Source: a virus | Direction: 5' to 3' (one strand) | Length of the DNA stretch: 64,000 nt | Virus record (IMG/VR): IMGVR_UViG_3300027899_001695 | Location: 1 to 64,000 of that record | Part shown: piece by piece, positions 38,988 to 59,565 of the stretch | Layout of the letters: every line of letters begins with the position of its first letter | Numbering within the stretch: the stretch's first letter is position 1 | Position numbers and translations under genes: made by a program | The notes under the pieces: model-generated | Told to the model about the DNA's origin: nothing | Databases searched by the model: none | The model's input: the letters and a program-made list of their open reading frames with translations, nothing else

Positions 38988-39014
38988 AAATAAAAAAGGG
39001 GAGAAAAGAAAGAA

Positions 39015-39680: not shown

Positions 39681-39720
39681 TTTGAAAGTTGACACAAATG
39701 TGGGATAATTAAGTAGTAAA

Positions 39721-40116: not shown

Positions 40117-40132
40117 AGTAAGGAGGATTGTT

Positions 40133-40450
40133 ATGGATAAGTATCTTGAATATCTTGTGACTCGTTTAATCGAGTGTATGAGTTTATCGGTTCCGAAGGA
40201 TAAATTGGACCAAGTATCGGCATTGATTACACGTCATGCTGCTGAATTGTTAGAACAAGTTAAAGCTTCTAAAGATGCTGAGTTTATTAAAGCCAAATTT
40301 TCCAATTTCATTAATAAAGTACTTAGTACTATAGAAGCACTTGATTTGGCAGAAACGCAGTATAAAGCTGTGCGTAAGTTAGTCTTATCAGAAATTCATG
40401 GCTGTTTGGATATGATAATAATAAATTTGGGGAAAAAAGAAGATGGATAA
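40133..40450 (+). CDS. Helical hypothetical protein
   Basis: AAGGAGG RBS. Confidence 0.55.
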   Translation: MDKYLEYLVTRLIECMSLSVPKDKLDQVSALITRHAAELLEQVKASKDAEFIKAKFSNFINKVLSTIEALDLAETQYKAVRKLVLSEIHGCLDMIIINLGKKEDG

Positions 40451-42635
40451 TAATGAACGACCTGAAGACATGTTTATAAATGACCCAGCACAAGCGGAGG
40501 CTATGAAACTTAGTTCTCCGTATGTTGCTATGTTTGATGATTACATGAAGAAGGGTGAGGGATTTTATAAAGATATTCCACAAGTAGGGCAAGTACCAGA
40601 AGTTCCTGGATTAGGAGGTGTGGGTGGAGTACCAGAAATTCCTAATATGTTTAAACGTATGGAGAAATCTAGAGAGGTTAAACATTGGGAACAGAAGATA
40701 AGAAAGCAGGGATTATATAATGAATTGAGCCACATGAATGCCTCTCAATTGGATGGAATGATTAATCGTATTGAGAAGGCGATAGAAAATAAATCTACAA
40801 AGAGGGTTACTATGAAAAAACAAAAAGCAATGATTAAAAGCTTTTCTCCTGACTTGAGGAAAGCCTTATTGCGTAAAGGTATGTCTATAGATGATGTTAG
40901 GCATGTTGAAAATGAATTTAAGACTAATCTTCCTCCTGAAGCTATTAATATAATGAATAGTTATGTTGATACTGCGGTTAGGAAAGGTTGGGGCGGTGCT
41001 GCAGTTGGGGGTCTATTAGGAGCAGGTGGTGGCCCTCTTGGGATTGCTATTGGTGCTTATATTGGTCATAAATTAGGCGAAGCTGTTGGTAGAGGGCAAA
41101 TATCGTCTAAACAGGCTAAAGTAGCGAAAGAAGCAATGCTTCAGAGGTCACAGAATGAGTTAACAAGCCAAAAGATTATTGATAAGGCATTACAACAATA
41201 TTTAAATGGTACGGCTGCTGCAGGTGGCCCTGCTGCTCCGCCTAGTGTGTCACAACAAATACTGGGTAGAGTAATGGATAGATTCTTGCCACCTAAGACG
41301 GCTACTCCTTCTGCAGGTGCAGGACCGACTGCGAGTACTTCTGGTACTACAAGTGGTGCTGGGTCTGCTGCAGGTGCAAGTTCTAATACAAGTACTGGTG
41401 CTCCTCCGCCTCCTACTGCTGGTGCAGGAGCAGGAGCACCTTCTCCTTCTGCTAGTACAGGGGCACCTTCTGCTGGTGCAGGAGCAGGAGCACCTTCTCC
41501 TTCTGCTAGTACAGGGGCACCTCAGACTGGTGCTAGTGCTGGAGCAGCTCGTTGGCAAGCTAATGTTCAAGCAGGTTTGAAAAGGCAAGCTGCTGCACAC
41601 AAAGCAGCACAGACCAAAGCAAATAAGCCAAAACAGTCTACACAACAACCTAGTCAGCAACCTGTAGATGGGGGGGCACCCCCAGGTCCTAAGCCTGTTC
41701 TTGGTGGACGTAAACAAAAGAAAGTAGAGACACCACCTATAGAACCTGAAGTAACACAGTCAGAAAAAGATGCTTCTAAGAAAGGTAGAATACCTAGGAA
41801 ACCGAAGAAACCAATGGATGCAATGAGTGAAGCATCTGCGAGACTTGCTGCAGGAGAGGATGAGGATACTATCATGAAATGGATGTTAGATAATAATATG
41901 ACAGATGACCAAATTGGTCAAGTTATGGAAGAGAGAAATAAACAGGCAATGGGCAAAATGATGAAAGGAGAGGTGAATCCAATGAAACCACAATCACCTA
42001 TTGAATTAAAAAAGGCTATTTATAGTGTAAATAGGGCTATAGAGATGATAAAGAAAGAGGCTCCTTGGACTAAGGAAGACCCATCAATGTCTCCTGCTCA
42101 AGAACAATCTGGCGGAGGAGAAGAGAAAGATATTAAGTGGCTTTCTCATGCATTGGAAGGTGGTGGGCTCGATTCTTTATCTAAACACCCTGTAGTGGGA
42201 GAAAATATTGGGAATGCTGCTGATAAGGTAGGTTCCAAGTTCTTAGAGAAGATACAATCAATGGGTAAAGAAGGTAGTTTTGACCATGCTGACCCTAAAG
42301 CGATTGGTTTAGCTATTCTTGAATCTATTGATGGTATGGCCAATGATGCTGGTGATGAGAAGATAGGAAAAGCTTGGACAGGTGCAATGGCATCTCTTAT
42401 TGATAAATATGGTAAGAAAGTTGTTGCAGATGTTGCACAAGGTCTTGCTCAAGAAGGTGGACAAGGACAATTCCGTAAAGCAGTTGCTGAACCTATTGGT
42501 CCTACGCATTATCCTGCCAAAAATAAAAAAACGGCTAAAACAGATTTTGGTGGGCAATCTGAAGTATATGGTGATGGAGCCAATATGGATACAGAGTCAC
42601 TCACTGAAAATAGCAAGATGTTAGAAACTGAATAA
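40443..42635 (+). CDS. Modular low-complexity protein, putative internal head/ejection polyprotein with glycine zipper
   Basis: Repeated hydrophobic-x-K-[A/S/G/E] sites, GWGGAAVGGLLG...GAYIG zipper, A/G/P/S/T linker. Confidence 0.5.
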   Translation: MDNNERPEDMFINDPAQAEAMKLSSPYVAMFDDYMKKGEGFYKDIPQVGQVPEVPGLGGVGGVPEIPNMFKRMEKSREVKHWEQKIRKQGLYNELSHMNASQLDGMINRIEKAIENKSTKRVTMKKQKAMIKSFSPDLRKALLRKGMSIDDVRHVENEFKTNLPPEAINIMNSYVDTAVRKGWGGAAVGGLLGAGGGPLGIAIGAYIGHKLGEAVGRGQISSKQAKVAKEAMLQRSQNELTSQKIIDKALQQYLNGTAAAGGPAAPPSVSQQILGRVMDRFLPPKTATPSAGAGPTASTSGTTSGAGSAAGASSNTSTGAPPPPTAGAGAGAPSPSASTGAPSAGAGAGAPSPSASTGAPQTGASAGAARWQANVQAGLKRQAAAHKAAQTKANKPKQSTQQPSQQPVDGGAPPGPKPVLGGRKQKKVETPPIEPEVTQSEKDASKKGRIPRKPKKPMDAMSEASARLAAGEDEDTIMKWMLDNNMTDDQIGQVMEERNKQAMGKMMKGEVNPMKPQSPIELKKAIYSVNRAIEMIKKEAPWTKEDPSMSPAQEQSGGGEEKDIKWLSHALEGGGLDSLSKHPVVGENIGNAADKVGSKFLEKIQSMGKEGSFDHADPKAIGLAILESIDGMANDAGDEKIGKAWTGAMASLIDKYGKKVVADVAQGLAQEGGQGQFRKAVAEPIGPTHYPAKNKKTAKTDFGGQSEVYGDGANMDTESLTENSKMLETE
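41416..41522 (+). repeat. 54-bp tandem duplication (AGAGAGAPSPSASTGAP x2)
   Basis: Exact 53-nt copies at 41416 and 41470. Confidence 0.9.
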
Positions 42636-42644
42636 GAGGTAGTT

Positions 42645-42929
42645 ATGGAGCGATTGGCTTCCGAATATGACCCTAAGACAGGGCAGTTTACGTTTACAGT
42701 AGGCGATGAGTTAACGGCTGAGATATCTCCAGAACAATATGTGGAGTTTATATCTCAGTCAATGATGCTTGTCCAACACGTTGTAGAAAATTACTTTAAT
42801 GGGTCAATGAAGAGGTTTATCAAATCAACTGAGCATGCTCCCTCAATACCCATAGATTCGGCAGATTTAGTAGAAGACTTGGATAAATGGTTGAGACATA
42901 AATCAACACATATAGATTTTGGAGCATAA
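42645..42929 (+). CDS. Hypothetical protein
   Basis: GAGGT RBS. Confidence 0.55.
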   Translation: MERLASEYDPKTGQFTFTVGDELTAEISPEQYVEFISQSMMLVQHVVENYFNGSMKRFIKSTEHAPSIPIDSADLVEDLDKWLRHKSTHIDFGA

Positions 42930-45900
42930 TATGACAGAAAGAACTATATTGTTGTCTAGAATTGAACAGATAATGAGACTTGGTAAAAAGAAAGAGCCTA
43001 CTGTTGCAGACTATTTAAGTCAGTTTGATATGGATCGGCTTATTGATACAAAGAATCCCGCTAATAATGATTATAGAAGAGAGTTTGTTAATAGTTTCTT
43101 TAAACATCTTCCTATAGATAGACGACCTATGCTATTACTAGGAAGGTCAGGTCCCCAGGTTCTAGCCTACATTAATACAGACTCCAGTTTAGCCAAAAGA
43201 CATGCCCCAGTTATGATAAGATATGAAGCTGCTATGGAAAGACAACTTCCTTTAGTTAGTGTGAAGTTATTTAATGATAAATTTAAAGATATGAGTCAAG
43301 TGGCCGCAAATTTGCAACCTTTTAGTGAAACTAAAGCAAATAATGTCAATAAAGAAGCTTTCATAAATAAGTGGGCAACTAGATTAATTTCTGATTTAAA
43401 AGCAGGAGAATTCGCACCTGATAAATTTATAGGACATGGTTTAGATGAACAAGAGTTAGCAAACCTTCCAACTAAAGTAAAACTTGTTCCAGGAAATAAG
43501 AAAGGAAAAGCAGTAAGAATCCCTAAAGAAGAACGAGAGCATCGACATTTATTACCTAAAGTTGATAAACCATTGGGAAGTGGAAAGCAACCTTTAACCA
43601 AATATCATCCTCGTGGAGCAAGTGTTCATAATCAAAAGTTATGGAGAGCTATACATCGTGCTTTACAAACACCAGAAGATATAAAGAAATTAAGTATGGA
43701 AGTAGTCAATGCTACTCCGTCTAATCAGAAGTTTTATAGTCCCTATATTGACCCTGAAACTGGGCAATTAAAAGATAGAGTTCCTAAAGATGTAGACCAA
43801 CAGTTTCATCAAGATATGAGAGACCTTATTGAGAAAAAGGGGCAAGAGTTTCATGATAGGTATATAATATCTCCAGAATATGTAGATGATGATGGTACAG
43901 TGCATCCTGCACATCCAGAGTATAATGGAAAAAAGGGGGATAAAAGCAATGCTGGAGAGTGGTCCAAGAAAACACCAGCGGATGTTAAAAGGGCATATTC
44001 CCAAGCTGAAGGAGAAATAACAGGACATCTAGAGACATATAAGGAAGATGAGAAGCTTAAAGAAGATGCAACTATAGATTCAGGAGAAGAGCCTCCCGTA
44101 ACTCCTTGGTATGAGCAACTTGGAGTAAAGGTACAACGAGAAGGTCAAGTAAAAAATGCAACAGGTATCTGGACAGATTCAAAAGGTAAGAAATACCGTC
44201 TTAAAGGCGATGAGGTTTATCATCACCCAAAAATTGGTGATATTATTGTACGAAATCTAAATGGAATGAGAACTCGTATTTTTGCTCCAGGTATAAATAG
44301 AACCTTTGTTAATAGTAAAGGTATCCAAGATATTATTAGGATGTATTTTGAACGTAACCTTCCGATACCTAAAGATTATAAACCTTATTTAATAGGGTAT
44401 GAGGATTGGAAACAGTTAGCAGTTTTAAGAGAAGAGATTTATCAAGATGATTTAAAAAAGGCAAAAACAGAGAAACAACGTCAGAAACTTACGACTGCTT
44501 ATGAAGATTGGAAAAAGAAATTTAGAGGAGTTAGTCTAAAAGCTAGAGAAGAAGATTCTAAAGAATGGGGAAACCAAGACTTAGAATCGCAGTTACTTAG
44601 AGATAATACAGACCCTAAGTTTGATATCAAGCTTAGAGAGTTTCAAGATTTACAACATGAAGGGAATTCAAATGAGATACAAAGAAAGGATTTCTATGAT
44701 GGTTTTACACCTGCTCAAAAGGACTTCTTTGACCAATTTAAGAAGAATCTTACTACTAAAATAAAAGCCCTTAAACAAAAATTTGATGCAGAACAAGACT
44801 TAAATATACCTAATCCAATGGATATTAATTTTAGTCCATTAGATGCAGGAGAGGCTAGACTTCCTTATATGAGTAATAAGGACCGTTTACAGTCTGATAG
44901 CGATAGAGAGTACCAAGCTCTTAAAGACAAAGCTGCTGAAAGTATAAAAAATACACCTGCCTTTCAAGAGTTCCATAAATGGTCTGCTTTACATGGAGAA
45001 TTAGCAAGTAAGGGGTACAAACATGTAGCATTAGATGATGCTGCAGAGGCTGCTTATGACAAAGCTTTATTAGATAGAACCGAAGCAGAAGAAAAGGCTG
45101 CGGAAAAGAAACAAAAAAATAGATACAAGAAGTACAAGGAAGCGGACGAAAATAAAAAAGGTGCTATAGGAACAACAGAAAGTAGCCAAGGAAAGAGTAA
45201 CCCTACACTTACTAAATTTGAAAAGCGTCAATTAGAATGGTTAAAAGCTAAAAAAGATATAGCAAGAACTGCGGTTAAACTTGAATATCATAAAGCTTTC
45301 GCTAAAATATTACAAGAAGCATCTCCTACTAAAGAACGTAGAATTTCGCATGTTGATAATTTACTAAGTGATGACGGTACTTATACATATGATGCAACTG
45401 TTGATTCAGATGGACAAATAACAGATATTAGGAATAAAAAGCAACTTAAGCCTAATCAAATAAAGGCTTTTAAAGAGGCCAATAGTCCATCTATGTACAA
45501 ACGTTATAATCCTGCAAGTGCTGCAGCTTATGATAAAGCTTATGCAGATAGAATGAAAAGTATGCAAACAAAAGATATTAAAGATATTAAATCAGATAGG
45601 GCAAAGAAAGTAGGCATAGAGCCTCTTTCAGATAACCCAGACCGTGGTTTTGGAGACCCTAGTCCTCATAGAGATTGGCAAGACAGATTAGATAGAGCTA
45701 TAACAGAAGCCATTAAAATTGGTACAGAAACAAAAGATTGGACAGAATTAAACCGATTATACGATGCTTTTCCAAACGAGAAGATGCATTATAGAAATAC
45801 TCAAGACCCACGCAGTAAAAGAAGTGGGGCATATGCAAAACGAGCAAATCTGGCGTTTGATAAGAAAAAACAAGAAGAAGCTGCAGCCAATGCTGCTAAA

Positions 45901-46728
45901 GCTGCTGCTAATGTACCTCCTCCACCTCCTCCAAAAGATAAAACTGCAGAACGAGATTCCGCTATTCGTTGGGAAATTGAAAGAGCCAAAGAAACTTCTA
46001 ATGCAAGCGCAAAAGAATTTGCTCTTGAAGCGAGTCAAAAAGGTATAAGAGACCCAAAAGAAAAACAAAAATATATTGATGATGGAATGGACCAGGCTTT
46101 TAATAGAGAGCTTATGTATATTGGAAAGAAGTTTGGTGTAATTATTACGCCCTCTGCGCCTATAAAAACTAAACCTGAGAAACCGATAAAATCGCCTGAA
46201 GGTAAGAGACGTGAAAAGGACCCTACTAGACCTTGGGTAGAAGAGAATAAAAATAAAGTAACTTATAAGATAGAGGAACTTCCACAAACTGTTAAAGAAC
46301 AAACAAAAGTTAAAGATAAAGCACGTATTAATGCTGGAATTAAACATCTTGAAGATAAAACAAAGAAGCTTACTGCTAAGAAAGTTGAAGCACCTGTTCC
46401 AGAAGAGGAGGTACCTGAGAAACCTAAAACTTGGCAAGAACGGCTAGCTACTATAAAGGCTGAACGAGCAAGTTCAGCACCTGCTTCTACCCATGTGGAA
46501 ACGAAAAAGAAAGAGACTACTTCAGAAGTTGGAGTCACTAAACAACCTAAAACTTGGCAAGAACGGTTAGCTACTATAAAGGCTGAACGAGCAACGGCAA
46601 CTCCTCCTATTCCCAAAGCTGAAAAAGGGCTGACATGGCAAGAAAGATTAGCTAATATAAAGGCTGAACGAGCAAAAAGTACTTCTAAGCAGACTTGGCA
46701 AGATAAGTTATCTACTATAGGGAATTAA
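42919..46728 (+). CDS. Large charged protein (1269 aa), putative internal virion protein
   Basis: N-terminal amphipathic helix LLSRIEQIMRLGK; C-terminal TWQERL repeats. Confidence 0.45.
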   Translation: MEHNMTERTILLSRIEQIMRLGKKKEPTVADYLSQFDMDRLIDTKNPANNDYRREFVNSFFKHLPIDRRPMLLLGRSGPQVLAYINTDSSLAKRHAPVMIRYEAAMERQLPLVSVKLFNDKFKDMSQVAANLQPFSETKANNVNKEAFINKWATRLISDLKAGEFAPDKFIGHGLDEQELANLPTKVKLVPGNKKGKAVRIPKEEREHRHLLPKVDKPLGSGKQPLTKYHPRGASVHNQKLWRAIHRALQTPEDIKKLSMEVVNATPSNQKFYSPYIDPETGQLKDRVPKDVDQQFHQDMRDLIEKKGQEFHDRYIISPEYVDDDGTVHPAHPEYNGKKGDKSNAGEWSKKTPADVKRAYSQAEGEITGHLETYKEDEKLKEDATIDSGEEPPVTPWYEQLGVKVQREGQVKNATGIWTDSKGKKYRLKGDEVYHHPKIGDIIVRNLNGMRTRIFAPGINRTFVNSKGIQDIIRMYFERNLPIPKDYKPYLIGYEDWKQLAVLREEIYQDDLKKAKTEKQRQKLTTAYEDWKKKFRGVSLKAREEDSKEWGNQDLESQLLRDNTDPKFDIKLREFQDLQHEGNSNEIQRKDFYDGFTPAQKDFFDQFKKNLTTKIKALKQKFDAEQDLNIPNPMDINFSPLDAGEARLPYMSNKDRLQSDSDREYQALKDKAAESIKNTPAFQEFHKWSALHGELASKGYKHVALDDAAEAAYDKALLDRTEAEEKAAEKKQKNRYKKYKEADENKKGAIGTTESSQGKSNPTLTKFEKRQLEWLKAKKDIARTAVKLEYHKAFAKILQEASPTKERRISHVDNLLSDDGTYTYDATVDSDGQITDIRNKKQLKPNQIKAFKEANSPSMYKRYNPASAAAYDKAYADRMKSMQTKDIKDIKSDRAKKVGIEPLSDNPDRGFGDPSPHRDWQDRLDRAITEAIKIGTETKDWTELNRLYDAFPNEKMHYRNTQDPRSKRSGAYAKRANLAFDKKKQEEAAANAAKAAANVPPPPPPKDKTAERDSAIRWEIERAKETSNASAKEFALEASQKGIRDPKEKQKYIDDGMDQAFNRELMYIGKKFGVIITPSAPIKTKPEKPIKSPEGKRREKDPTRPWVEENKNKVTYKIEELPQTVKEQTKVKDKARINAGIKHLEDKTKKLTAKKVEAPVPEEEVPEKPKTWQERLATIKAERASSAPASTHVETKKKETTSEVGVTKQPKTWQERLATIKAERATATPPIPKAEKGLTWQERLANIKAERAKSTSKQTWQDKLSTIGN
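46421..46728 (+). repeat. Four KTWQERLATIKAERA-like repeats
   Basis: Near-identical ~50-nt copies at ~46421 and ~46544; diverged copies at ~46633 and ~46693. Confidence 0.85.
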
Positions 46729-46730
46729 TA

Positions 46731-48236
46731 ATGGAAGAAGTAATGTATACATATAAGTCTGGGGAAAATGAGGTAACTTTACAGGAACAAAATGGTAAAT
46801 ATACGGTTATTACGAATGGAAGTCCTGTACTATCTACTTCTGTGTTCCCAGATGCTTTAAATAAGTACTATCGTGATATTTCTACTATTTCTGATGCCCA
46901 GCAAAGTGGTCATGATATGGCTATGACCTTATTTGGTAATGAGGTAGTAAAAATAAATAGAGTTATTATTCCTCGACTGGCTCAATTGGGCCATTTAAAG
47001 GAGTCTAGGTATGTTAAAATGCTAACAAAGCAGTTAGAAGATGTTATGAAGTTTGTACCGCCAAGAGAGGCAGGGGCATGGATTCCGTCTCCAAATGATG
47101 GTGATATGAATCAAGGCACAAATGAGATTAATTTACATCCTAGTAGAGAAAGCGGTTATAAAGTAAAGAAAGTTAAACTACGCCAAGCTGATACAGGTAT
47201 GCAACCCTATAATGAGTTTAATGATTTACCGCATTCCGAAGTAGAGAGGCCCACTAAGATATCTAATACATATCAACAGAAGGTTAAAACTAGAGAACAA
47301 AGACCTATTGAGGGAGATTACTTTGAACCCGCCTATTTAAGCAAGGAGTACCAATATAATACAGATTGGACTCCTGAAGAAGAAGCGTTTGCTAAGAAAT
47401 ATTATGAAGAAGAAAGCGGAGAAGGTAGCTGGGATAAGTTAGATGATTGGACTAAAGGAATTGAAATTGCTAGACCCACACACGAAAATATGACCAAAGA
47501 TGACGTTATAGGAACTTTAAGAGATAAATATGTTAAACCTGTTTCAAAAGATAAGGTATTAAATACAATACCTTATAAAAACTTACCTCCGCCTATTTTA
47601 AATATGCGTAAGTCTAGAGTAGCAAGAGATGATGCCTTTGATTTAGGCGAGAAGGTAGGTGTTGATTTTAATAAGGTAGGGTTTGATGATTGGATGGAAG
47701 GGTTAAAGATAGAGCATGAGCATAAAGATGTAGTGCATGATGACCATCTTATGATTGCTAAGATTGCGAATGCCCATCTTAAAGAAGACCCTAAGTATTA
47801 CACAAAGCTTAAGAAATATGTAGAAAAGAGTTTAAGAAAAGAAGCAGAGAAGATGACAGAAGGCGAACAAGCACATCAGAATATGGGATTGGAGAATAAA
47901 CAGCGTAATGGCAGGCCTCAACCACCTATTAGTGGTGGAAAGATGGAGAAAGCCGCATTTTCTCCAGATGCCCCAAAGGTTGTAACTGGCGAGACACAGG
48001 AACCTATTGAAATTCGTAAGGAGGGAATCGGTAGTTTTTCAATTGAAAATGCAGATTATAATCCTGAGATTGACAACAATGTAGGTCGTCCAAAGAAACT
48101 TGTTTTACGCCAACAACTGGAGGACGGAGGCGATGTGGAAGAAAATAAAGGAGAGTTCTTTAAGAACTCAAAGGATTTTTATTCATTGAAGTCTTGGATT
48201 AGTTCAATTATCGAGGAGAAACATGGCAGAGTATAA
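46731..48236 (+). CDS. Modular putative head protein containing a DUF5661-like domain
   Basis: GLKIEHEH...AKIANAHLKEDPKYYTKL. Confidence 0.6.
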   Translation: MEEVMYTYKSGENEVTLQEQNGKYTVITNGSPVLSTSVFPDALNKYYRDISTISDAQQSGHDMAMTLFGNEVVKINRVIIPRLAQLGHLKESRYVKMLTKQLEDVMKFVPPREAGAWIPSPNDGDMNQGTNEINLHPSRESGYKVKKVKLRQADTGMQPYNEFNDLPHSEVERPTKISNTYQQKVKTREQRPIEGDYFEPAYLSKEYQYNTDWTPEEEAFAKKYYEEESGEGSWDKLDDWTKGIEIARPTHENMTKDDVIGTLRDKYVKPVSKDKVLNTIPYKNLPPPILNMRKSRVARDDAFDLGEKVGVDFNKVGFDDWMEGLKIEHEHKDVVHDDHLMIAKIANAHLKEDPKYYTKLKKYVEKSLRKEAEKMTEGEQAHQNMGLENKQRNGRPQPPISGGKMEKAAFSPDAPKVVTGETQEPIEIRKEGIGSFSIENADYNPEIDNNVGRPKKLVLRQQLEDGGDVEENKGEFFKNSKDFYSLKSWISSIIEEKHGRV

Positions 48237-51200: not shown

Positions 51201-51348
51201 GATGGTTGGTGATGTATCCACTCCTACGTTCAATGGTTCTGCAGGACAGAACTATAAGAAGAAGATTGGTAGTGCTTTGCATTTCAAGGCAAGGGGAGTA
51301 GAAGGAGTCTTTGATGTAATGAAGTCTGTTAAATTTGAGGATGTATAA
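48223..51348 (+). CDS. Polyvalent protein: HEAT/LRV-like repeats plus two GNAT-like acetyltransferase domains
   Basis: D.DP.VR-type repeats; KGMGKAA..RA...NAAEWWRK; IHIEYLAS...NGTGKRII...DAVPFYERIGF. Confidence 0.65.
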   Translation: MAEYKWQRRERKQKKNRERMPKHGKAQAQIYSDSLEKREKEKNKLLGRIDKMLMKQTPLEDTMGKNLQTIKPQQLAKVTNTTIPQAGQQIKQQQTQNRQVGQNAPQQPPAQRNISFGPNGADLLPNEIKQRLDKFNSQDQLMQINETVNLNAKNPQDYEMAKYLARSGSPKVQTMALNKLSAQDLDTMIQPTSPNTDAVAILAQKTQNPSYMRSMTKHTSPQVRMNLLKNPNITDLTMSEMYDDNDDQIRNRIVGQSTNQELLHLFISDKNPQIRARLVDKLDHDGLKILLTDSDPHVQAMAKKKLQGRFSKMEKSGNFQKPKRPIFIQQETDRLDNNQTTSISPERLPHFSHLGDVGSNSVNGKTYNTPSFSNKSLILKEITHFIKKAEGEIEHRMLKPEDIQAWIEDQIKSAKEEYPDIDINDINSKNLSPLHSRVIKPIIYAKQLLVDYPELNAKDRANITGTFKNGKLEAVHSIRESGPFGSHLNVVLSHIKNANPNNPNASKGMGKAAARRAIEISRNGGKTLTISPDTNAAEWWRKNVKDPTNGMITIKPAEYEGVLSRMDTPKIENEMDEEFTSYAEPLRKDKIMKADKQKTFPIEGEQLPLPDVGHEYDKEATQFPVRLPTKANSYHNAFGRYYQGPDGGKRRLVPLDELIDAPKTHMATNLGMTESGRWYRHRFPDTMQDEAEQHESNREYDREEERRRLQQETDDDEREREYGYDSDRDDDEDITGDEDYSSSANLPETELPNGAIKRGDHVFHKARNIQINDEENEKFLRQASQEWSRYSNYNPSTSGKYGGRGGRGAASVSMLQGVLGSYFRDVRAKEEDPSYEPWNKYMFVTSKRGTKKKLEGATRYQMGDGNIHIEYLASSPRNEKGMPNRLNGTGKRIIYKLAKMLDKQSKVPGGNQLPYIHLTYLPDAVPFYERIGFKHDGYGLTLDTQGIRNLLKNVRKDDKSGSPFFRKDADDWDNGWDDPDDYAEDEVVNKAVGMVGDVSTPTFNGSAGQNYKKKIGSALHFKARGVEGVFDVMKSVKFEDV

Positions 51349-52019
51349 TGGATAGTAGAAATAAGATATTAGAAGATTTATATTTTCTTCTTGTTAAAGC
51401 AGAAGATGCGGAAGAAATGATTGAAGAAGAGGCAAAGCCTGTTAAACCAAAGACAGAAATGCAACATCATATTCTTGATAGAGTAAAACATTTTAGTAAG
51501 GAGATGGATAGAATTCTAAAAGAAGAACAGAACATACAGAGTTTCTTACAGGGTTACTCACGATTAGCTTTGTTGTCTAAGTCGTATACTACTGATGAGG
51601 TAGGCGACTTATATGAAACAGCTAAGAGAGTTAATCTCTTTAAAGAGTTTAATATTGCCGAACCTATGGAACAAACAAGGCTTGATAAGGTAATCTTTAT
51701 AGATAACATTGCTCATCATTTACATCAGTTCAAGGAACCTAATGGTGCAGCGGTGTATAAGCAATTAGATAAACTTGCAGATATATCAAAATCTGCGGGA
51801 GAAAAAGAAAGAGATGATAGGTTACTTATTCTTGATAATCCTATGAATTTAAGAAAATTAGCCAAGATGAATAATCTTGAGATAATACAGAAAGGAGCCA
51901 TGCTTGATAGAGGGAGTTCTTTCTGGAGACTATTTGAGAAAGGTCTAAAAGTAGGTGTAGAAAGAATGTCGGATACAGAATTAGTAATTCTTAGAGAATG
52001 GTTGTATTCGAAAGTTTAA
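51348..52019 (+). CDS. Hypothetical putative head protein
   Basis: N-terminal KILEDLYFLLVKA helix. Confidence 0.5.
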   Translation: MDSRNKILEDLYFLLVKAEDAEEMIEEEAKPVKPKTEMQHHILDRVKHFSKEMDRILKEEQNIQSFLQGYSRLALLSKSYTTDEVGDLYETAKRVNLFKEFNIAEPMEQTRLDKVIFIDNIAHHLHQFKEPNGAAVYKQLDKLADISKSAGEKERDDRLLILDNPMNLRKLAKMNNLEIIQKGAMLDRGSSFWRLFEKGLKVGVERMSDTELVILREWLYSKV

Positions 52020-52072
52020 TAGTTGAATGTAACGTGGTAAAATTAAGTTAGTAATTAGGGAGGTACAGTAAT

Positions 52073-52849
52073 ATGTCACAAAGTGTATGGGATTCTGATT
52101 TTGGTGCTGTGTTTAAGCAAAGGTATGATATTCTTAAAGGAATAGATATAAAAAAAGGTGTCATGGGTGCTGTAGGTGGTGCAGTAGGCCATATGGTTGA
52201 CCCAACTGGTGTAGTTGGTCCTGCGATTGGTGGTGGTCTTGGTGCAGAGTTGGATAAATCGGAGAAAATGGAGAAAGAAAAGATAGATAAGACAGGTTAT
52301 ATGGATAATGAGTATAATAGATTAAATCCTATTGGTGGAGATAAACCTACTGCGACAGGGTATGAGCATGGTGATTCTCTACCGCCTAATCGGCCTCAAC
52401 CATATAATAGCCCACGTAGAAAACAAGATGTAAATGATGAAGATTTAGGTGATTTAAGAGTAGAGAATATGAATAAATCGCTTTATAAAGCTATTCGTTC
52501 TGTTGATAGGGTTCTTAAAGAACTTAGAGTCGTAGATACAGGTCTTAAAGGAGAACGGGTAGGAGAGATACGCCACGACTCCAATCCTAAAGGTAGTTCT
52601 GGTGGAGGTACAACTGCTCCTAGACCCAAAGAAAGAAAATTGCCGATAAAGAAAGAAGAAGAGTTTGCTATGAGTATGAATAAGTCACTTAATAAGTCTA
52701 TTAAGTCTGTTACTAAGATGCTTCATAAGCTTGATTCTTGTGGTGGTTCTACTGCTGGTTTAAATATTAAAAATGTTAAGGCAAAGAAGGATGGTGGAGG
52801 CGTATATCCTTCAAAAACTCCTCCGAAGCCTAAAACAAGGAAGGCATAA
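52073..52849 (+). CDS. Modular putative head protein with glycine zipper and repeated NKSL..KSI helices
   Basis: GVMGAVGGAVG...GGGLGA; MNKSLYKAIRSV, MNKSLNKSIKSV. Confidence 0.5.
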   Translation: MSQSVWDSDFGAVFKQRYDILKGIDIKKGVMGAVGGAVGHMVDPTGVVGPAIGGGLGAELDKSEKMEKEKIDKTGYMDNEYNRLNPIGGDKPTATGYEHGDSLPPNRPQPYNSPRRKQDVNDEDLGDLRVENMNKSLYKAIRSVDRVLKELRVVDTGLKGERVGEIRHDSNPKGSSGGGTTAPRPKERKLPIKKEEEFAMSMNKSLNKSIKSVTKMLHKLDSCGGSTAGLNIKNVKAKKDGGGVYPSKTPPKPKTRKA

Positions 52850-52850
52850 C

Positions 52851-53330
52851 ATGACTGCATGGTATAAAGAACCTAAGTATAACGGTGCTGGTATTATAGA
52901 GCAAATAGACTTAAAGAAAGCTATACCTGCTTTAGCTATGGCTGCCGCTCCTGTAGTTGCTGAAGCTGCAAAACCAGTTGCTCAAAATCTTGGGCAAAGA
53001 GCTTCAAAGCATATAGACAAAAAAGGCATTAATGTTCCTATAACAGGAGTTCCTATTGGACCTAGATTAAAAATTGGCGGGGATAAGAAAATGGAAAAAG
53101 AGCTTCCTACAGATGCTATGACGATGACTAATAAATCCTTAGTCAAATCAATTGACACCTTCCTAATGAGAAAGGGCATTCTTCAGAAGACTGCCAATAA
53201 GTCAGGGATGGCTCTTGGTTCGTATCAAAAATTGGGCGACCCAGTAAAGAGAATGGTAAACAATAGTGCCACCATTCAATCTCCAGATGTGTGGAGTGCT
53301 GGAAAGAAAACAACTAAAACAAAGGAATAA
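52851..53330 (+). CDS. Modular putative head protein
   Basis: LKKA, MEKE, NKSLVKSIDTFLMRKG. Confidence 0.5.
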   Translation: MTAWYKEPKYNGAGIIEQIDLKKAIPALAMAAAPVVAEAAKPVAQNLGQRASKHIDKKGINVPITGVPIGPRLKIGGDKKMEKELPTDAMTMTNKSLVKSIDTFLMRKGILQKTANKSGMALGSYQKLGDPVKRMVNNSATIQSPDVWSAGKKTTKTKE

Positions 53331-53332
53331 GA

Positions 53333-54775
53333 ATGACTGACTTAGATAGCATACGGTATAGGTTAGAATTACTATTAACCAAAGCTACACCTATGTCTGA
53401 ATATGATAGGATGATAAATGAACCAGACTTTGGTGCAGATATTGGTGGTATTCCTAACTTTTCTTCTTCTTCCGCAAAATCTAGAAAACCCAAAGCTCCT
53501 AAAATTCCAGTAGCGGAAGAGGGTGAAGTACAGCCGTATGTGTCTAATAGACAAAAGAAAGCAGAGAAGAGACGAAAAAGACAAGCAAAATTAGACGCAT
53601 TATTTGGTCAGTTTGTTGACCAAGAACAACAAGGGCTTCCTCCTAATCCTAAATTAAAAGGTCAAATAGACAAATATCTTAGAAGAATGTTTAAGGTGGA
53701 TGACTTAGATAAGGAATTAGCAGGAATGTCTCCTGAGGACCCTAATTATGCATCTACTCAAGATAAGAGAGACATGGCTCATAAGTTATGTGCAATTCGT
53801 GTTAATGCGGAGAAAGCAAAAGCCAGAACAAGTATGGGGCATAAAATGGAGAAAGCTTTATGGGGGGGAGACCCAAATGCTGTTCCAGAAGAACACCCCA
53901 ATCAAGCTAAACAAAGCCAACTTAACTTCTTTCCACAACATGAAAAAGCACCGCCTGTTAGACCCCAGTCAACAAAAGAAGGCCGAAGAGTATCAAGACG
54001 CCCTTTACGGAACTCGTTAATAAAGAGCATATTTAATTTTGGTAACATGCTTGAAAAAGCAGAAGGACCAAGAGACTATTCACAACCTGTCGATAGTGCT
54101 GAGGCATTTAAATATCGCAGGAATGTCCCCTCTGAACGAAGGGCTAATTACGAAGTTCTTAGAGAACAGGGTTTTACACCAGAAGAAGCTACTCGCTTAA
54201 AGGATTGGAAACCTGGGCCTTTAAGGACTATCATCCAGAACAAAGATAAACCCAATAGGGGGTTAGACCCTGAATGGATTGATGACCCACAACAGAAAAT
54301 GGATAAAGAGTTTGAGTTACTGGATGATTATAAAAATGCGGGAATAAAGAAAATTCCAGGAATGGAACCAATTGATGCAAATGAAGCACAAAGACTAAAT
54401 CAGTATTACCAACAAGTAGGTAAACCACTTATTCATGTACCTACACCAGAAGAATTTCAATCTCAAATGTTACAATACAAAGAAATGAAGAGAGAGGGTA
54501 AAGCACCCCCTATGTTTAACAAGGCATTAGCATATTTATTTGATTTAGATATCTCTAAAGCAGGAAATGCTATTAAGGAACTTGAAGACTTTATTAGAGA
54601 GTATGAAGCTACAATTAAATCAAGACCAAAGAACTGGTCACCAAAGGATATAGCTTCGCATACTCGTATGTTAAACAATGCTAAACAGCACTTAGAGGGC
54701 TACTATAAAAATAAACTTGTAGCTCCTGAAGCTCCTAAAATGCCCTTACAACAACAGTTACCTTTGGAGTATTAA
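53333..54775 (+). CDS. Modular putative head protein
   Basis: LTKA, MEKA, NSLIKSIFNFGNMLEKA, ISKA. Confidence 0.5.
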   Translation: MTDLDSIRYRLELLLTKATPMSEYDRMINEPDFGADIGGIPNFSSSSAKSRKPKAPKIPVAEEGEVQPYVSNRQKKAEKRRKRQAKLDALFGQFVDQEQQGLPPNPKLKGQIDKYLRRMFKVDDLDKELAGMSPEDPNYASTQDKRDMAHKLCAIRVNAEKAKARTSMGHKMEKALWGGDPNAVPEEHPNQAKQSQLNFFPQHEKAPPVRPQSTKEGRRVSRRPLRNSLIKSIFNFGNMLEKAEGPRDYSQPVDSAEAFKYRRNVPSERRANYEVLREQGFTPEEATRLKDWKPGPLRTIIQNKDKPNRGLDPEWIDDPQQKMDKEFELLDDYKNAGIKKIPGMEPIDANEAQRLNQYYQQVGKPLIHVPTPEEFQSQMLQYKEMKREGKAPPMFNKALAYLFDLDISKAGNAIKELEDFIREYEATIKSRPKNWSPKDIASHTRMLNNAKQHLEGYYKNKLVAPEAPKMPLQQQLPLEY

Positions 54776-55086
54776 TATGGAAGAAAGACTGATAGGAGAA
54801 TGTTATGAGCCTCCAGACGTTATTGAAGTTGCCAAAGAGAGCAACGCAGAAAAGATACGACACAATAAAGTATATAACGATTGCATTTGGAGCAGTCAGT
54901 ACAGTTATGGACATGTATATAGCGTTCCTGTTCGGAGCAGAGAACTATGTATTGGCATTCACCCTGCTAGGGGTGTCGATTATTCTGACTCTGATTGATA
55001 GTGTCCTATGGGTCTGGGTCTTGGAACAGATGGGAAGGAAAAAAGTGGAGCATGGAAAAAGAAATGGAAAGAGGAAGGAATAGAAT

Positions 55087-55455
55087 ATGGATTGGCACGA
55101 TGTAGTAGCAATAGTATCGCCTATTATGACTATATTTATATTTGTAATTGGTGGTCTTGTATCTTATTTTACTATAATTGGGGATATGAAAAATAGACTG
55201 ACGAAATTGGAGACTCAAATGCAACCATTTTGGAATTTAATAGAGAGAGAACTTCCAAAGATTATCCATTCCCCACATACACCAGAAATAGATGCCTTAT
55301 TAGAGAAAATGATAGAGGGCGTATTAACTAGAGACGAGGCGATAGACCTTAAATTTAAATTAAAAGAAGAGATGGAGATACCTGATGTGGCTAAGAAATT
55401 AGCCATAGTACTGATAATAGCGAGATTGGATTCATTAATAAAGGGGGTTAAATAG
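55087..55455 (+). CDS. Membrane-anchored coiled-coil protein
   Basis: N-terminal TM followed by RLTKLET coil. Confidence 0.55.
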   Translation: MDWHDVVAIVSPIMTIFIFVIGGLVSYFTIIGDMKNRLTKLETQMQPFWNLIERELPKIIHSPHTPEIDALLEKMIEGVLTRDEAIDLKFKLKEEMEIPDVAKKLAIVLIIARLDSLIKGVK

Positions 55456-55456
55456 A

Positions 55457-55789
55457 GTGGACTGCTATACTGTATTCGACACACTTGATATTATAACATT
55501 TATAATACTGTGTATTACTAGTTGGTATTCTTATAAAATATATAAGTTATTACCAGCACAAATGGTAACCTTTTTATTTATTGGATTTATTCTTTCCGCT
55601 TTTTTACAAATAGGGTTTGTAATAATTAGTTTTATACCTTTAGATGGGGAGTTTTTGATTGTAAATAGATTTATTGGAGAACTGACAGTAGCTTTAAGAG
55701 TAATACCGATTGCTTTTATTATGATTGGAACGATAAATCTGTATAAAGTAGTTACTAAATATATCAATGGAAATGGAGGTATACACTAA
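55457..55789 (+). CDS. Three-TM membrane protein
   Basis: Three hydrophobic segments; GTG start. Confidence 0.55.
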
Positions 55790-56035
55790 TGGGTTGTTCA
55801 ACATGCCCAATTTGCGGAGAAAGAAAACCTTGTCACGATGAGATTTGCTATAAATGTGAGTTGCAAAATCTCGATATAGGTAGAGATAAAAAGGAAGATA
55901 AATAAATGCCGTTTGGTCTATGTTGTTGTTTCTGGACTAACCTTGGGATGGGATTAGCATTGCTATTTCCTTTTCTTTCTGCCGCAATTTTTTATATAAC
56001 TAGTAAGTTCAAGAAACATGAATGTGAGGACGAAG

Positions 56036-56269
56036 ATGCCTGCTGTTAGTCGTGCACAGCATAGATTTATGGGTTTAGTAGCTTCTGGTAAGAAGAAAGT
56101 TAAAGGGCTATCTAAAGAAGATGCAAAAGAGTACATTCGTGGGCAAAAACGAGAAAATCTACCAGAACGAATTGAGAAATTTGTGCGGGAAAAGAAAGAA
56201 AAGATGAATTTACCATATAATCAAGGAACGTTTGGAGTCTCCCAAGCAGGAGTAGGAGCAAGAATATGA
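56036..56269 (+). CDS. Small basic protein, DUF3008-like (MPAVSRAQHRFM)
   Basis: N-terminal motif common in phage head regions. Confidence 0.5.
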   Translation: MPAVSRAQHRFMGLVASGKKKVKGLSKEDAKEYIRGQKRENLPERIEKFVREKKEKMNLPYNQGTFGVSQAGVGARI

Positions 56270-57321
56270 TAAGAAAAGACTTAGGTAACTATATGCGTTG
56301 GAAAACAATCCAACAACAAGGACCTTGTGAAGGACAATTTGATGGAATATGCCAAGGACCGAAGGGTATTGATGTACCAATGAGGCAACTTGCACATCGT
56401 AGACCTAAAGATAGAGAGGATGCTGAAAGAAGACTTATGTCTATGAACCAAGCTCCCAATAAAAAACCAGGGCATAAACCTAGGTTATATGATTCCTTGA
56501 ATAGACCTCATGCGTATCGTCATTTATGCCCTACTTGCCATCTCCATCATGATAACCATATGTTTGATGAAGGCTATCAAGAGCCTAAATGGGTGCTGGA
56601 TAATAAGTTTAGGCAGCTTATTAGAGATAGAAATAAGAATAAACAAAAGATAAAAAGGCATGGTGGAATTGTTAAATCTATAAATGACTTTGTAAGAAAA
56701 TTTGATAATACTATTGACCCAAATGAGCCAAGGCAAACAAGGTATTTACATAATTTACCTTCTAGAGACACTCATATTAAATATGAAGACCCGTTTGACC
56801 CTGAAATTTATATAGAAGAAGAATCAGATGAGGAGTACGTTCCTGAAATGCACACCCAAAATACAAGATTGCCAATAGAAACAAAAAGATATAATAAGAT
56901 AATGGATAGAATAAGCCCTCATGGAAGTCAAAAGATATTGGATAAAATTGTGGGTAAAGAAGATATACCATATGCGAAATCATTATGTAAGTCTATTAAT
57001 CAATTTGTAAGAAAGTTTGATACTTCTTATCTACCACATGAAGGAACGGCTAAATATAAACCACAGAACGAAGCAAGAGCAAGAATAAATAACAAGCTTG
57101 GACCACACTCTATGTCCAATCGTAAGCAAGAAGTAAATCCAGCCTCTTCACCACCTATGGGGTTTGGACAAAAGACTAATCCTGAAGAGCATATAGTACC
57201 TAACTATGTACCAAAGGATAAGACCCATGCTTTCAAGTATCGTGGTAGGACATATGATGCAAGCAGAATGACACCCGAAGAGCTTTCAGACATATTATCA
57301 GAGATGGAGCAACAGATATAA
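56266..57321 (+). CDS. Modular protein with HNH-like zinc nuclease module and two KSIN.FVRKFD helices
   Basis: CEG...C...LAH...LCPTCHLHHD; IVKSINDFVRKFD and LCKSINQFVRKFD. Confidence 0.55.
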   Translation: MIRKDLGNYMRWKTIQQQGPCEGQFDGICQGPKGIDVPMRQLAHRRPKDREDAERRLMSMNQAPNKKPGHKPRLYDSLNRPHAYRHLCPTCHLHHDNHMFDEGYQEPKWVLDNKFRQLIRDRNKNKQKIKRHGGIVKSINDFVRKFDNTIDPNEPRQTRYLHNLPSRDTHIKYEDPFDPEIYIEEESDEEYVPEMHTQNTRLPIETKRYNKIMDRISPHGSQKILDKIVGKEDIPYAKSLCKSINQFVRKFDTSYLPHEGTAKYKPQNEARARINNKLGPHSMSNRKQEVNPASSPPMGFGQKTNPEEHIVPNYVPKDKTHAFKYRGRTYDASRMTPEELSDILSEMEQQI

Positions 57322-58775
57322 TGAAGAATATTCTTCGTGACGTAGAACAAGAAATTGAGAGACGTGGCATCCAAGAAGATGATGTTGCAGATATTGTACA
57401 AAGTGTGCCTGCATTAAAGAATCGGAGGATAGTGGGCGGTTATGCAAGTGTAATTATGGTAGATAGAGAAGGCCACAAGATTACCAAAGAAGCTTTAGTT
57501 GATGCTACAAAGAGATTTATGGCTGAGATTTATTATCGCCCCATAAATGTGTTTCATTGCTTGACGGGGGAAACTCAAATAAGAACTACCTCAGGTTATA
57601 AAAATATAGAAGCAATTAAAGTAGGAGATAAGGTTTATACTCATACTGGAAAGAGCCAAAAAGTAACTAAAACGATTATGCATGAAAACAATGGCTTGGC
57701 TTTAAGATTAGAATTAGAGAATGGTGAAGTTATTCGTGTAACAGACGAGCATCCTATCTTAACTAAACGTGGGTGGGTAAAAGCAGGTGACTTAACTACT
57801 CAAGATATTCTTCTGCATTTAGAATCGTCTGCTAAAGAATACCATGATAAAGTACGAGGAAAGTCTTTAGTAGGTATATTTGGTATAGAGAAAGCTAAAG
57901 AAGTGTTATTAAAAATGCGGGGAAAAAGAGAAAGTTATACTGTTACAGAAAAACATAATTCGCAACAAAGAAAAGGGCATACATGGCAAGAAGTATATGG
58001 TCATAATAAACCTGATTATGGTGGCTGTGTTGGAGAAAAGAACCCTCAATTTGGTAACAAGGGTAGAATAACTGGAGAAAAGAACCCTAACTGGAACAAT
58101 GGGGCTTCTCTTATAGCTTATGGAATAGGGTTTACTAAAGAATTAAAAGAAAATATACGAAAAGCGTGTGACAACAGATGCTTCTTATGTGGAGAACAAC
58201 CCAAATATAGTCTTTCAATACATCATATTGATTACAATAAGAAGAATAATCAAGAAGATAATTTAATTGCATTATGTAGAAAGTGCCACATGAAAGCACA
58301 TAATGAAGAACGATTGGCTATTAAGAACGGAACTAATATCAAGTCTATCGAGAAGTTTTGGTATACTGGAAAGGTGTATAATCTTGAAGTAGATATAGAC
58401 CACACATATGTAGGAAAAGGTATTATCTACCATAATTCAGATGTTACAGTTGGAAGGATACTTCCTAAGTGGGCAAACCCAAAAACAGGTCAGATAGTAG
58501 TAACGCATGTAGATGATACTGGATGGTATATAGTTGCAGAAATTCGTGATGATGTTGAGATTGCTGATAAGGTATGGGAAGAGATAGAAAAAGGAAACTT
58601 ACGAAGTTTCTCAATTGCAGGGTCTTCTAAAGATAAAACTGAGGGATATAAAGATGGGAAGTTTATGACTGAAATAACAAAGTTAGACATATACGAAACT
58701 ACGATTTGCGAAGAGCCCGTTTGCCCTATGGCTAAATTTGACTTCTTCTATAATCCTAACGAAACTATAATGTAA
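57321..58775 (+). CDS. Prohead (capsid maturation) serine protease, HK97-type, with intein (mature ~191 aa)
   Basis: GYASV..VDREG, NVFH|S.VTVG, G.LRSFSIAG, YETT..EEP. Confidence 0.9.
   Translation: MKNILRDVEQEIERRGIQEDDVADIVQSVPALKNRRIVGGYASVIMVDREGHKITKEALVDATKRFMAEIYYRPINVFHCLTGETQIRTTSGYKNIEAIKVGDKVYTHTGKSQKVTKTIMHENNGLALRLELENGEVIRVTDEHPILTKRGWVKAGDLTTQDILLHLESSAKEYHDKVRGKSLVGIFGIEKAKEVLLKMRGKRESYTVTEKHNSQQRKGHTWQEVYGHNKPDYGGCVGEKNPQFGNKGRITGEKNPNWNNGASLIAYGIGFTKELKENIRKACDNRCFLCGEQPKYSLSIHHIDYNKKNNQEDNLIALCRKCHMKAHNEERLAIKNGTNIKSIEKFWYTGKVYNLEVDIDHTYVGKGIIYHNSDVTVGRILPKWANPKTGQIVVTHVDDTGWYIVAEIRDDVEIADKVWEEIEKGNLRSFSIAGSSKDKTEGYKDGKFMTEITKLDIYETTICEEPVCPMAKFDFFYNPNETIM
57558..58436 (+). 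mobile_element. Prohead protease intein (293 aa, HNH)
   Basis: CLTGETQI...TDEHP...HHIDYNKKNN..NLIALCRKCH...IIYHN|S. Confidence 0.9.
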
Positions 58776-58946
58776 GGAGAGTAAGAATGACAGTAGCAAT
58801 AATATGGATGATATGTGTAATAATATTACAAGTAGTACTAACAGTATTAATATGGAACAATGATACAAGATTAACAAGACTTGAAAAGACCAAGAAATCT
58901 TCTCTTTTCCCCGCAAAATTAAAAACAAAAGGTAAGGTAATACCCT

Positions 58947-59564
58947 ATGTCGCACCTATTAGAAAGAATAAATAGTTTAATTATTAAAGACGAGAAAACA
59001 AGAGGGCTAGTTACACCTAAAGATGTAATGGCCAAGCCTCATGCTATGGCTGGTAAAGTACGTAAGAAGCTTCGTAACGTAGAAGGAGGGCCACAAGACG
59101 AACCCATAAGTCCTACAAAAGAACGACATAGTGGAAAAAAGGGAAAAGTACCTAAGATAATCATGGAATGGGTAAGACGTAATGGTAAGATGTTTATGCG
59201 TAGGCGGACTATCATGGTAAATCCAGAAGAAGTTGAGTCACATGATAAAGTAGTAAAAGTATATTTGAACAAAAAGCATATAGATAACCCAAGATGGGTA
59301 GAGTTTGCGATGCAGGCCTATGCAAGAAATATTAAATTTACAAAGAAAATGGAAGGGTATGCAGTATGGCATGACCCTGAAGACCCTTTGCAGAAAATAG
59401 TATATAAGTCACATGATGATAAAAAGAAGACTGTACTGGTACATAATACAAAATTATCTGAAAAGGTATTATTGAGAGTATTTAATATTACGCAAAAAGA
59501 AAAACAAGAAGGCCTTGAAGAAGTCGAACAGCAACAAAAGAAACAAGGAATTATTCCTGAATAA
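58947..59564 (+). CDS. Basic putative head protein
   Basis: MSHLLERINSLIIKD N-terminal helix; VRRNGKMF...MVNP motif. Confidence 0.5.
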   Translation: MSHLLERINSLIIKDEKTRGLVTPKDVMAKPHAMAGKVRKKLRNVEGGPQDEPISPTKERHSGKKGKVPKIIMEWVRRNGKMFMRRRTIMVNPEEVESHDKVVKVYLNKKHIDNPRWVEFAMQAYARNIKFTKKMEGYAVWHDPEDPLQKIVYKSHDDKKKTVLVHNTKLSEKVLLRVFNITQKEKQEGLEEVEQQQKKQGIIPE

Positions 59565-59565
59565 A

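Follow-up and report, generated by a model that had tools for sequence, protein, structure and literature searches.

The loading of proteins into the phage head is a principle already known from T4, phiKZ-like phages, P1 and the polyvalent proteins. In T4, the internal proteins IPI-III and Alt carry a capsid targeting sequence that is removed by gp21, and the propeptides of SPN3US and phiKZ are alike (PMC10052503, PMC9026906). P1 packages the Dar proteins, which are large anti-defence proteins, into its head; the sections of PMC12810830 that we draw on describe the removal of ~70 N-terminal DarA residues by the prohead protease and contacts between Dar helical domains and the inner capsid surface. 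Polyvalent proteins (Iyer et al. 2017) combine effector-type domains, including ADP-ribosyltransferase (ART), zincin and GNAT, and are predicted, in the parts of PMC5512222 used here, to be packaged and injected. In HK97, the archetype of the S78 proteases, cleavage falls at K103/S104 (PMC10275583). Here we analyze an array of genes at positions 40443-59564 of the IMG/VR virus record IMGVR_UViG_3300027899_001695 (the window under analysis is the first 64 kb of one 100,207-bp viral contig). An amphipathic helix of ~15 residues, with the consensus L-L-x-K/R-(S)-I-D/N-x-F-L/I-x-K-A/S/G, is common to otherwise dissimilar proteins of this array, hereafter the block. We put at roughly 0.5 the probability that the block, as part of a head-assembly module, encodes a lineage-specific and fast-diversifying set of head-internal (ejected) proteins with this helix as their signal.

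A first-pass annotation, made from the DNA letters, had described the block as a series of otherwise unrelated proteins that share a helix, and both parts of this description hold: each helix string that it quoted was located in the translations, and all-against-all BLASTP of the block proteins gave no significant similarity. When read in register, the N-terminal leaders and the internal helices of the type NKSLxKSIxxF are one motif, with hydrophobic residues at -4, -3, 0, +3 and +4, D, N or E at +1, Lys at +6 and a small residue at +7. The pattern [LIVM]xK[SAE][IL]xx[FV] has nine matches in seven block proteins and a single one elsewhere, in a dubious minus-strand open reading frame (ORF). 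The annotation had named a comparison with background proteins as one way to check the motif, and a count of this kind favors it: a broader core pattern matches seven times in the block (6,286 amino acids (aa); 0.3 in shuffles) and not once in the other 24,870 aa of the genome (1.0 in shuffles). The codons of the motif differ synonymously between copies, and the helix is therefore conserved at the protein level; it is a short linear protein motif and not a DNA repeat. The same codon differences rule out a DNA-level repeat or recombination junction.

The block spans ~19 kb and belongs to a run of about 15 co-directional genes between an intein-bearing portal gene (35634-38411) and an intein-bearing S78 protease gene (57321-58775). 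Four conserved small genes (38469-40450) stand between portal and array, and two genes of the array, P and Q (58787-59564), are placed after the protease. Every ORF of at least 60 aa that tiles 40443-59564 lies on the plus strand, as do all convincing genes across 36-60 kb. We name the proteins A to I, J to L (small membrane proteins), M and N between portal and protease, and P and Q after it. The relatives used for comparison are 80 portal-related loci together with longer stretches of G001, a complete 106-kb relative with ~67% portal identity, and of the partial G002 and G003. The features are as follows (nt, nucleotides; pI, isoelectric point).

35634..38411, plus strand: portal protein with a LAGLIDADG intein (Pfam Phage_portal, Intein_splicing and LAGLIDADG_3)
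38469..40450, plus strand: four small portal-adjacent genes; the second encodes an RNase H-like exonuclease, the third a weakly Neck1/tail-completion-like protein, and the first and last unknown proteins
40443..42635, plus strand: protein A, 730 aa, with RMEK at nt 40656-40667 and helices at nt 40752-40796 and 42000-42044
42645..42929, plus strand: protein B, 94 aa, acidic, also found 3' of A in relatives (BLASTP to L013, L011 and L005)
42931..46728, plus strand: protein C, 1265 aa, net charge +41, with an N-terminal leader helix at nt 42943-42987
46731..48236, plus strand: protein D, 501 aa, with DUF5661 and with KMEK at nt 47940-47951
48223..51348, plus strand: protein E, 1041 aa, with helices at nt 48349-48393 and 49348-49392 and KMEK at nt 49156-49167
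51348..52019, plus strand: protein F, 223 aa, with a leader helix at nt 51360-51404 and a second helix at nt 51465-51509, followed by the F domain
52073..52849, plus strand: protein G, 258 aa, pI 9.6, with a glycine zipper, KMEK at nt 52265-52276 and helices at nt 52475-52519 and 52682-52726
52773..53330, plus strand: protein H, at most 185 aa, pI 10.3, with an Ala-rich hydrophobic segment, KMEK at nt 53088-53099 and a helix at nt 53133-53177
53333..54775, plus strand: protein I, 480 aa, with a leader helix at nt 53345-53389, a helix at nt 53648-53692 and KMEK at nt 53843-53854
54805..55789, plus strand: three small membrane proteins J, K and L; a J homologue lies just upstream of the protease in G001
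56018..57321, plus strand: proteins M (83 aa, basic) and N (351 aa), the latter with helices at nt 56662-56706 and 56977-57021
57321..58775, plus strand: S78 prohead protease with a Hint/HNH intein and a leader-type helix at its N-terminus, nt 57324-57368
58947..59564, plus strand: protein Q, 205 aa, pI 9.9, with an N-terminal leader helix at nt 58950-58994 that ends I-I-K-D

The block adjoins portal and terminase. The large terminase occupies 31639-35241, and terminase, portal and prohead protease are all intein-bearing (31639-38411 and 57321-58775). The four small genes are syntenic with those of G001, G002 and G003 and match Pfam RNase_H_2, PHROG 403 and PHROG 5. At the far end, ~900 bp without a convincing ORF (59565-60460), with no tRNA and no Rfam match, separate the head block from the next small-gene region.

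How well the motif can be recovered was measured with hidden Markov models (HMMs) from which one protein at a time was left out. G, H and N are then the first match in the proteome (E 2e-4 to 3e-3), I is borderline at rank two (E 0.16), and A and E are not recovered, although the helix of A is kept in A orthologues. When an HMM is trained solely on the instances of relatives, six block sites outrank everything else in the whole proteome of this phage. As a leader just after the start Met the helix stands on C, F, I and Q, and also on at least nine non-homologous proteins of relatives. In a leader-profile scan of 150 N-termini, C comes first, the protease second and Q next; the training set included orthologues of C and of the protease, which makes those two ranks partly circular, while the rank of Q is independent.

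The portal has 667 homologues, the intein-less ones ~590 aa long, which places the phage among hundreds of uncultured relatives. (The nearest GenBank phage portals are those of the haloarchaeal tailed viruses HVTV-1/2 and HCTV-1/5, at 23-25% identity, and of a Methanomassiliicoccales virus; one distant portal homologue carries the label Candidatus Daviesbacteria.) In the freshwater clade, portal and protease are separated by an insertion of 13 to more than 20 kb, whose large genes are for the most part non-homologous. G001 is syntenic with our phage, and homologous there are the C-terminal domain of A, B, D, the GNAT-like end of E, F, J and the protease alone; the remainder of its 13-kb block differs. 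Yet the helix recurs. It follows the start Met directly in G001 15072, in G002 34222 and 19175, in G003 31653 and 15688, in the L013 orthologue of C and in L094 10620, 12150 and 14229. The first of these is a protein of 1006 aa that carries a DRAT-like ADP-ribosyltransferase (Pfam E 3.8e-16) behind its leader. A profile of this phage's own copies finds a C-terminal copy of the helix in G003 (HMM E 3e-5), and the motif is retained on non-homologous proteins across portal identities of 51 to 72%. Neither N nor G led to a relative when used alone in a locus search, and a collection-wide scan with the pattern returned 24 stretches, most of them chance matches in short spurious ORFs. Taken together, the data support a helix that is real, confined to this block in this genome and spread clade-wide on non-homologous proteins.

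Two further observations were made in the course of these comparisons. On an unrelated contig, L121 (IMGVR_UViG_2837079487_000001, reverse strand 67-2288), a 304-aa ORF begins with the leader …K-L-L-K-S-I-D-T-F-I-R-K-A-E-E-G, and an XkdF-like S78 protease gene stands two genes downstream of it; judged from this ORF, the tag may be used beyond the clade. A second module, VY[LV]xPGExxPxG...GxRGGxYY, occurs in four block proteins of G001 (L091 5072-13286). It stands shortly after the helix in G001 19569, L094 10620, P0124 and P0131, with other copies deeper in the proteins; the window lacks this module, and no Pfam family lies over it in the scanned G001 proteins.

Several features provide the context in which the block may be read as cargo, and they support that reading: the position between portal and protease, and, in the relatives, an ADP-ribosyltransferase, a zincin and a GNAT-like domain. 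The scheme that we have in mind is the following. A three-turn amphipathic helix, acting as a portable prohead-core signal, would precede every protein or, in long proteins, every module. Through the helix the protein would enter the prohead during assembly alongside the protease, which is itself headed by the same helix type; the helix would also mark a later S78 cut, both after the helix-end Lys and at [KR]MEK-type sites in disordered linkers. The products of the cut would be basic cargo modules, among them GNAT-like, DUF5661 and glycine-zipper ones, which would exit along with the DNA when the phage infects. We infer that the proteins are packaged in the capsid, that the helix binds some component of the prohead and that the protease cuts after Lys; the last is plausible because HK97 cuts at such a residue. 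Only tentatively do we suggest the strongest form of the scheme, in which the helix is position-independent (N-terminal, internal, tandem or C-terminal), serves as prohead ticket and Lys-cut mark at once, and makes modules fusible, splittable and swappable while the protease rides along.

The proposed cut sites can be examined by counting. The first-pass annotation had seen the proteins as punctuated by a hydrophobic residue, any residue, Lys and a small or acidic residue, and we compared block and rest of genome with expectations from 100 shuffles. The broad motif h-x-K-[ASGED] occurs 87 times in the block for 50.4 expected (1.7-fold) and 218 times in the rest for 170.6 expected (1.28-fold). 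The punctuation is sharper in the narrower h-x-K-[AS], with 42 sites in the block for 18.5 expected (2.3-fold) and 75 in the rest for 65.4 expected (1.15-fold), and sharper again in [KR]MEK, with 6 for 0.3 expected (20-fold) and 1 for 0.5. We had not expected this last enrichment: A, D, E, G, H and I have a single [KR]MEK apiece, every time in linker-like sequence. An internal translation start at the KMEK Met was considered and is not favored, Shine-Dalgarno-like sequence upstream of these sites being inconsistent. A different extension of the Lys site, K-A-E-G-(x)-I-E-H, follows the Lys in the C-terminal tail of the portal (V-E-K-A-E-G-I-E-H) and after the second helix of E, and the third helix of I (nt 54011-54055) ends L-E-K-A-E-G. 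Sequences of the K-A-E-G type may be a processing site that these block proteins have in common with the portal.

The protease that would do the cutting matches PF04586 (Peptidase_S78) on its C-extein with 25.9 bits against a cut-off of 21. Its H-S-D and S-I-A-G-S blocks are conserved in the alignment with relatives and would contain the catalytic residues; the intein is inserted between the conserved His and the Ser-Asp (H|S-D), which are adjacent in intein-free relatives. (The protease intein of G001 sits at a different site, near the C-terminus.) A PF04586 search of the records of five relatives gave no match even though G001 has the protease, so this filter is too coarse for divergent proteases; a clade-wide protease alignment was too divergent for scanning, and a narrower one led to 6 loci. 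A major capsid protein (MCP) of the SU10_MCP family and an acidic scaffold-like protein are encoded at genome positions 87650-89854, 28 kb downstream of the protease. With pI 4.8 and 4.5, respectively, they differ from most block proteins, which are basic (pI 9 to 10.5). The head module is thus split, with scaffold and MCP far from the portal-protease block, unlike in the marine relatives, where portal, scaffold, MCP and protease lie within 9 kb (L052).

The first-pass annotation had raised the possibility that MCP or scaffold would begin with the same motif. For the MCP this turned out not to be so: its N-terminus aligns from residue 1 in 10 relatives and has neither a leader nor a delta domain. 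The protein does contain an invariant h-x-K-G at residues 40-43 (Lys 42) in the ten relatives, and it has no match in GenBank phages. The scaffold is weakly tag-like, in its N-terminus in marine phages (E-I-L-G-R-I-E-K-Q-M-E-G) and in a central helix in freshwater ones, and the G001 scaffold is the nominal top match of this phage's profiles with scores of 4-7. The similarity is not significant (a profile of marine N-termini reaches a best E of 0.34 here), and the likeness between tag and scaffold is at most suggestive. A complex prediction of MCP, scaffold and H residues 100-150, run with no controls, scored 0.00 and is evidence neither way on binding. Apart from this, a 75-aa ORF at genome positions 78343-78570 repeats N-terminal residues of the scaffold (…E-M-L-D-V-L-K-D-I-G-G…).

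A number of results weigh against the reading of the block as helix-tagged, Lys-processed cargo. The broad Lys motif is enriched just 1.7-fold where the rest of the genome already reaches 1.28-fold, and Lys-rich amphipathic helices yield h-x-K from composition alone. Two leaders have other residues in place of the helix-end Lys, that of C (R-L-G) and that of the protease (R-R-G; N-R-N in G001), and cleavage after Lys therefore cannot be universal. Because the MCP lacks a removable delta domain, there is no internal reference for the specificity of the protease. Three membrane proteins, J, K and L (54805-55789), sit inside the array; K has a weak holin-like PHROG match, and the three are probably not cargo. 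G001 shows no significant concentration of the core pattern in its block, with 2 matches in 4,673 aa versus 5 in 28,532 aa outside. Finally, loading could in truth depend on the conserved F domain, which always stands C-terminal of the variable parts, and the helices would then be mere linkers. Of the address-tag and protease system that the annotation proposed, a recurrent clade-wide helix, a position in the head module, effector-type domains in relatives and an S78 protease are supported; a Lys at the end of every leader is not.

The F domain leads to the most probable of the alternatives. The helix is often the extreme N-terminus of a protein or lies directly upstream of a conserved domain, and the conserved domains of A, D and F do follow helix or Lys sites, as the annotation had it for recognizable domains in general. 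In A, the conserved C-terminal domain comes after the helix and the junction K-K-E / A-P-W is kept in L013, G001 and L005. The D domain opens a gene here and is internal in longer proteins of G001, G002, G003 and L016, where it stands directly after a helix or an h-x-K-A site. Upstream of the F domain we find a cassette made of h-x-K-[AE]-x-GM..DV.TP.[FY], helix 1, PKT.LQ and helix 2 (K-I-L-G-x-I-E-x-F). Cassette and F domain are contiguous in P0129, and the G001 GNAT protein is contiguous through helix 2; in this phage a gene boundary just before helix 1 interrupts the cassette, so that its first part closes E and the rest opens F. Such fission and fusion at helices would be expected, and neutral, if the polypeptides are cut there anyway.

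The F family comprises 62 representative homologues (P0121-P0182) in proteins of 157-1021 aa, and the F domain is nearly always their last 160-200 residues, behind unrelated N-terminal parts of 0-820 aa. It may be a carrier or anchor for head cargo. The proteins would then still be capsid cargo but would be loaded through a carrier such as this C-terminal domain, with helices and KMEK as linker or processing-recognition elements. The extreme C-terminal position of the F domain in most of the 62 homologues fits such a role, as do its continuation into the S78 protease in L016, L094, P0171 and P0174 and the two helices fixed in the cassette before it. Leaders are nonetheless borne by proteins that have no F domain (Q, C, G001 15072, G003 31653 and L094 10620), and the protease itself is headed by a helix, which leaves us doubtful of this account.

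We consider it unlikely that the block proteins are non-virion proteins in which the helix is an inherited structural or oligomerization linker, spread by recombination between neighboring genes and without a signaling role. The near-identical helix pairs in N, whose N-terminal part is Cys/His-rich, and in G, where both copies are bordered by low-complexity linkers, do suggest local duplication, and weakly similar helices occur in the scaffold. Against such a spread, the flanks of the helices are dissimilar, the codons differ synonymously and the motif is kept over the whole range of portal identities given above.

The domains found in the block bear on whether its proteins act on membranes instead. 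DUF5661 in D (E 4.4e-17) is the one family that Pfam recognizes among the block proteins, and PHROGs gave no match for A to I, N or Q; C has no recognized domain. E contains weak HEAT-like repeats, an acidic tract, a weak GNAT-like domain and a conserved tail h-x-K-A-x-GM..DV.TPTF. The GNAT assignment rests on a Pfam E of 0.04, on Foldseek, whose top matches are all GNATs (E ~0.04) for a low-confidence model of the C-terminal part of E, and on an ESM Atlas search that gave a weak GNAT lead and nothing more. The AlphaFold2 models of G and of the E C-terminus have a mean predicted local distance difference test score of ~45 and are used for secondary structure and a weak fold lead alone; that of G has helices at residues 122-158 and 192-223. 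A has a glycine-zipper segment, visible in its sequence and supported with E 0.002 in its G001 orthologue, and low-complexity Ala/Gly/Pro/Ser sequence; its conserved C-terminal domain comes after the helices, and the protein shows a weak SctB2 translocon-like match (E 0.0036). Among the domains named in the first-pass annotation, DUF5661 and the glycine zipper are thus borne out and GNAT stays weak; an HNH-like domain in N is not supported, the lone HNH match being the endonuclease within the protease intein. The block of G001 contains a DRAT-like ADP-ribosyltransferase, an ATLF-like zincin (E 1e-6), DUF5661 and a glycine zipper. Per polypeptide, effector-type domains amount to the weak HEAT and weak GNAT in E and to DUF5661 alone in D, and the G001 block proteins have one Pfam domain each (DRAT, ATLF or DUF5661); the annotation's label "polyproteins" is an interpretation, not an observation.

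Membrane-active proteins, serving as a DNA-delivery conduit or in membrane assembly, with a membrane-binding helix and no release at Lys, would account for the glycine-zipper or Ala-rich hydrophobic segments in A, G and H and for the SctB2 match, as well as for the three integral membrane proteins in the block and for a hydrophobic helix face flanked by Lys and Arg. This is quite improbable in our view: the helix also heads soluble enzymes, namely the ADP-ribosyltransferase and the protease, and its position at domain and gene-fission boundaries would be left unexplained. That we are looking at short Lys-rich amphipathic matches chosen by eye is very improbable indeed, since, low as single matches score and although profiles of mixed instances reach only E ~0.1-1 in other genomes, the core pattern (7 versus 0, with 0.3 expected), [KR]MEK (6 versus 0.3), the leave-one-out results (E 2e-4 to 3e-3) and the independent G003 match (E 3e-5) all speak against chance.

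If the reading of the block as head cargo that is both addressed and cut by way of the helix is true, it has several consequences. It would provide a simple, transferable tag for loading foreign proteins into HK97-type capsids, which are widely used nanocontainers, and would allow virion-delivered proteins to be predicted from sequence in uncultured phages without annotated relatives. It would mean that the T4 principle arose independently with another protease family and another cut-site chemistry. It would also explain a fast-turnover arsenal of injected effectors, whose modules can be fused, split and exchanged at tags without disturbing delivery.

How, then, does the block compare with the known systems? 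As in T4, a short N-terminal peptide that ends in a protease-type site sits on unrelated proteins whose genes lie in the head module, and the ADP-ribosyltransferase among the putative cargo of G001 recalls T4 Alt. Unlike in T4, the protease is of the S78 and not the gp21 type and the putative P1 residue is Lys rather than Glu, so that the tags end h-x-K-[A/S/G/D] in place of the L/I-x-E site of T4; the tag is also a longer helix, occurs internally, in tandem and C-terminally, and is borne in many cases by very long multi-module proteins. With HK97 the block shares the protease family and, through it, a precedent for cleavage after Lys. The HK97 signal is a C-terminal tail of the protease, for which the delta domain of the MCP is the docking site (Duda, Oh and Hendrix 2013, as cited in the sections of PMC12749128 used here), whereas here the helix is at the N-terminus of the protease, the MCP has no delta domain and the scaffold has a gene of its own. 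By analogy, the large putative head cargo with processing resembles P1 DarA, although the Dar proteins are incorporated in a hierarchical and protein-specific manner and the sections of PMC12810830 at hand describe no common short tag.

In the same way, large and putatively multi-module proteins with effector-type domains that are encoded between portal and protease recall the polyvalent proteins, as these are presented in the parts of PMC5512222 considered here. Those parts describe processing by in-built metallopeptidase domains and neither a shared helix tag nor prohead-protease sites; in addition, Pfam finds no MuF in the window (Phage_Mu_F has no match at E <=0.01 in any block protein), and modules that polyvalent proteins combine are often separate genes here. 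The haloarchaeal virus HVTV-2, which belongs to the tailed viruses with the nearest GenBank portals (24% identity), likewise has large proteins between portal and protease, in the order portal, a 1048-aa protein, MuF, zeta-toxin-ART, protease and MCP. For HK97-type proheads, a short terminal peptide reportedly suffices to carry proteins inside, a result attributed to Duda, Oh and Hendrix in 2013. What is new in this locus is the clade itself, which has no cultured member, and, as far as can be judged from its sequences, the combination of an S78 protease with Lys-type sites, a putative tag that stands at N-termini, internally and in tandem, and gene fission and fusion at these tags.

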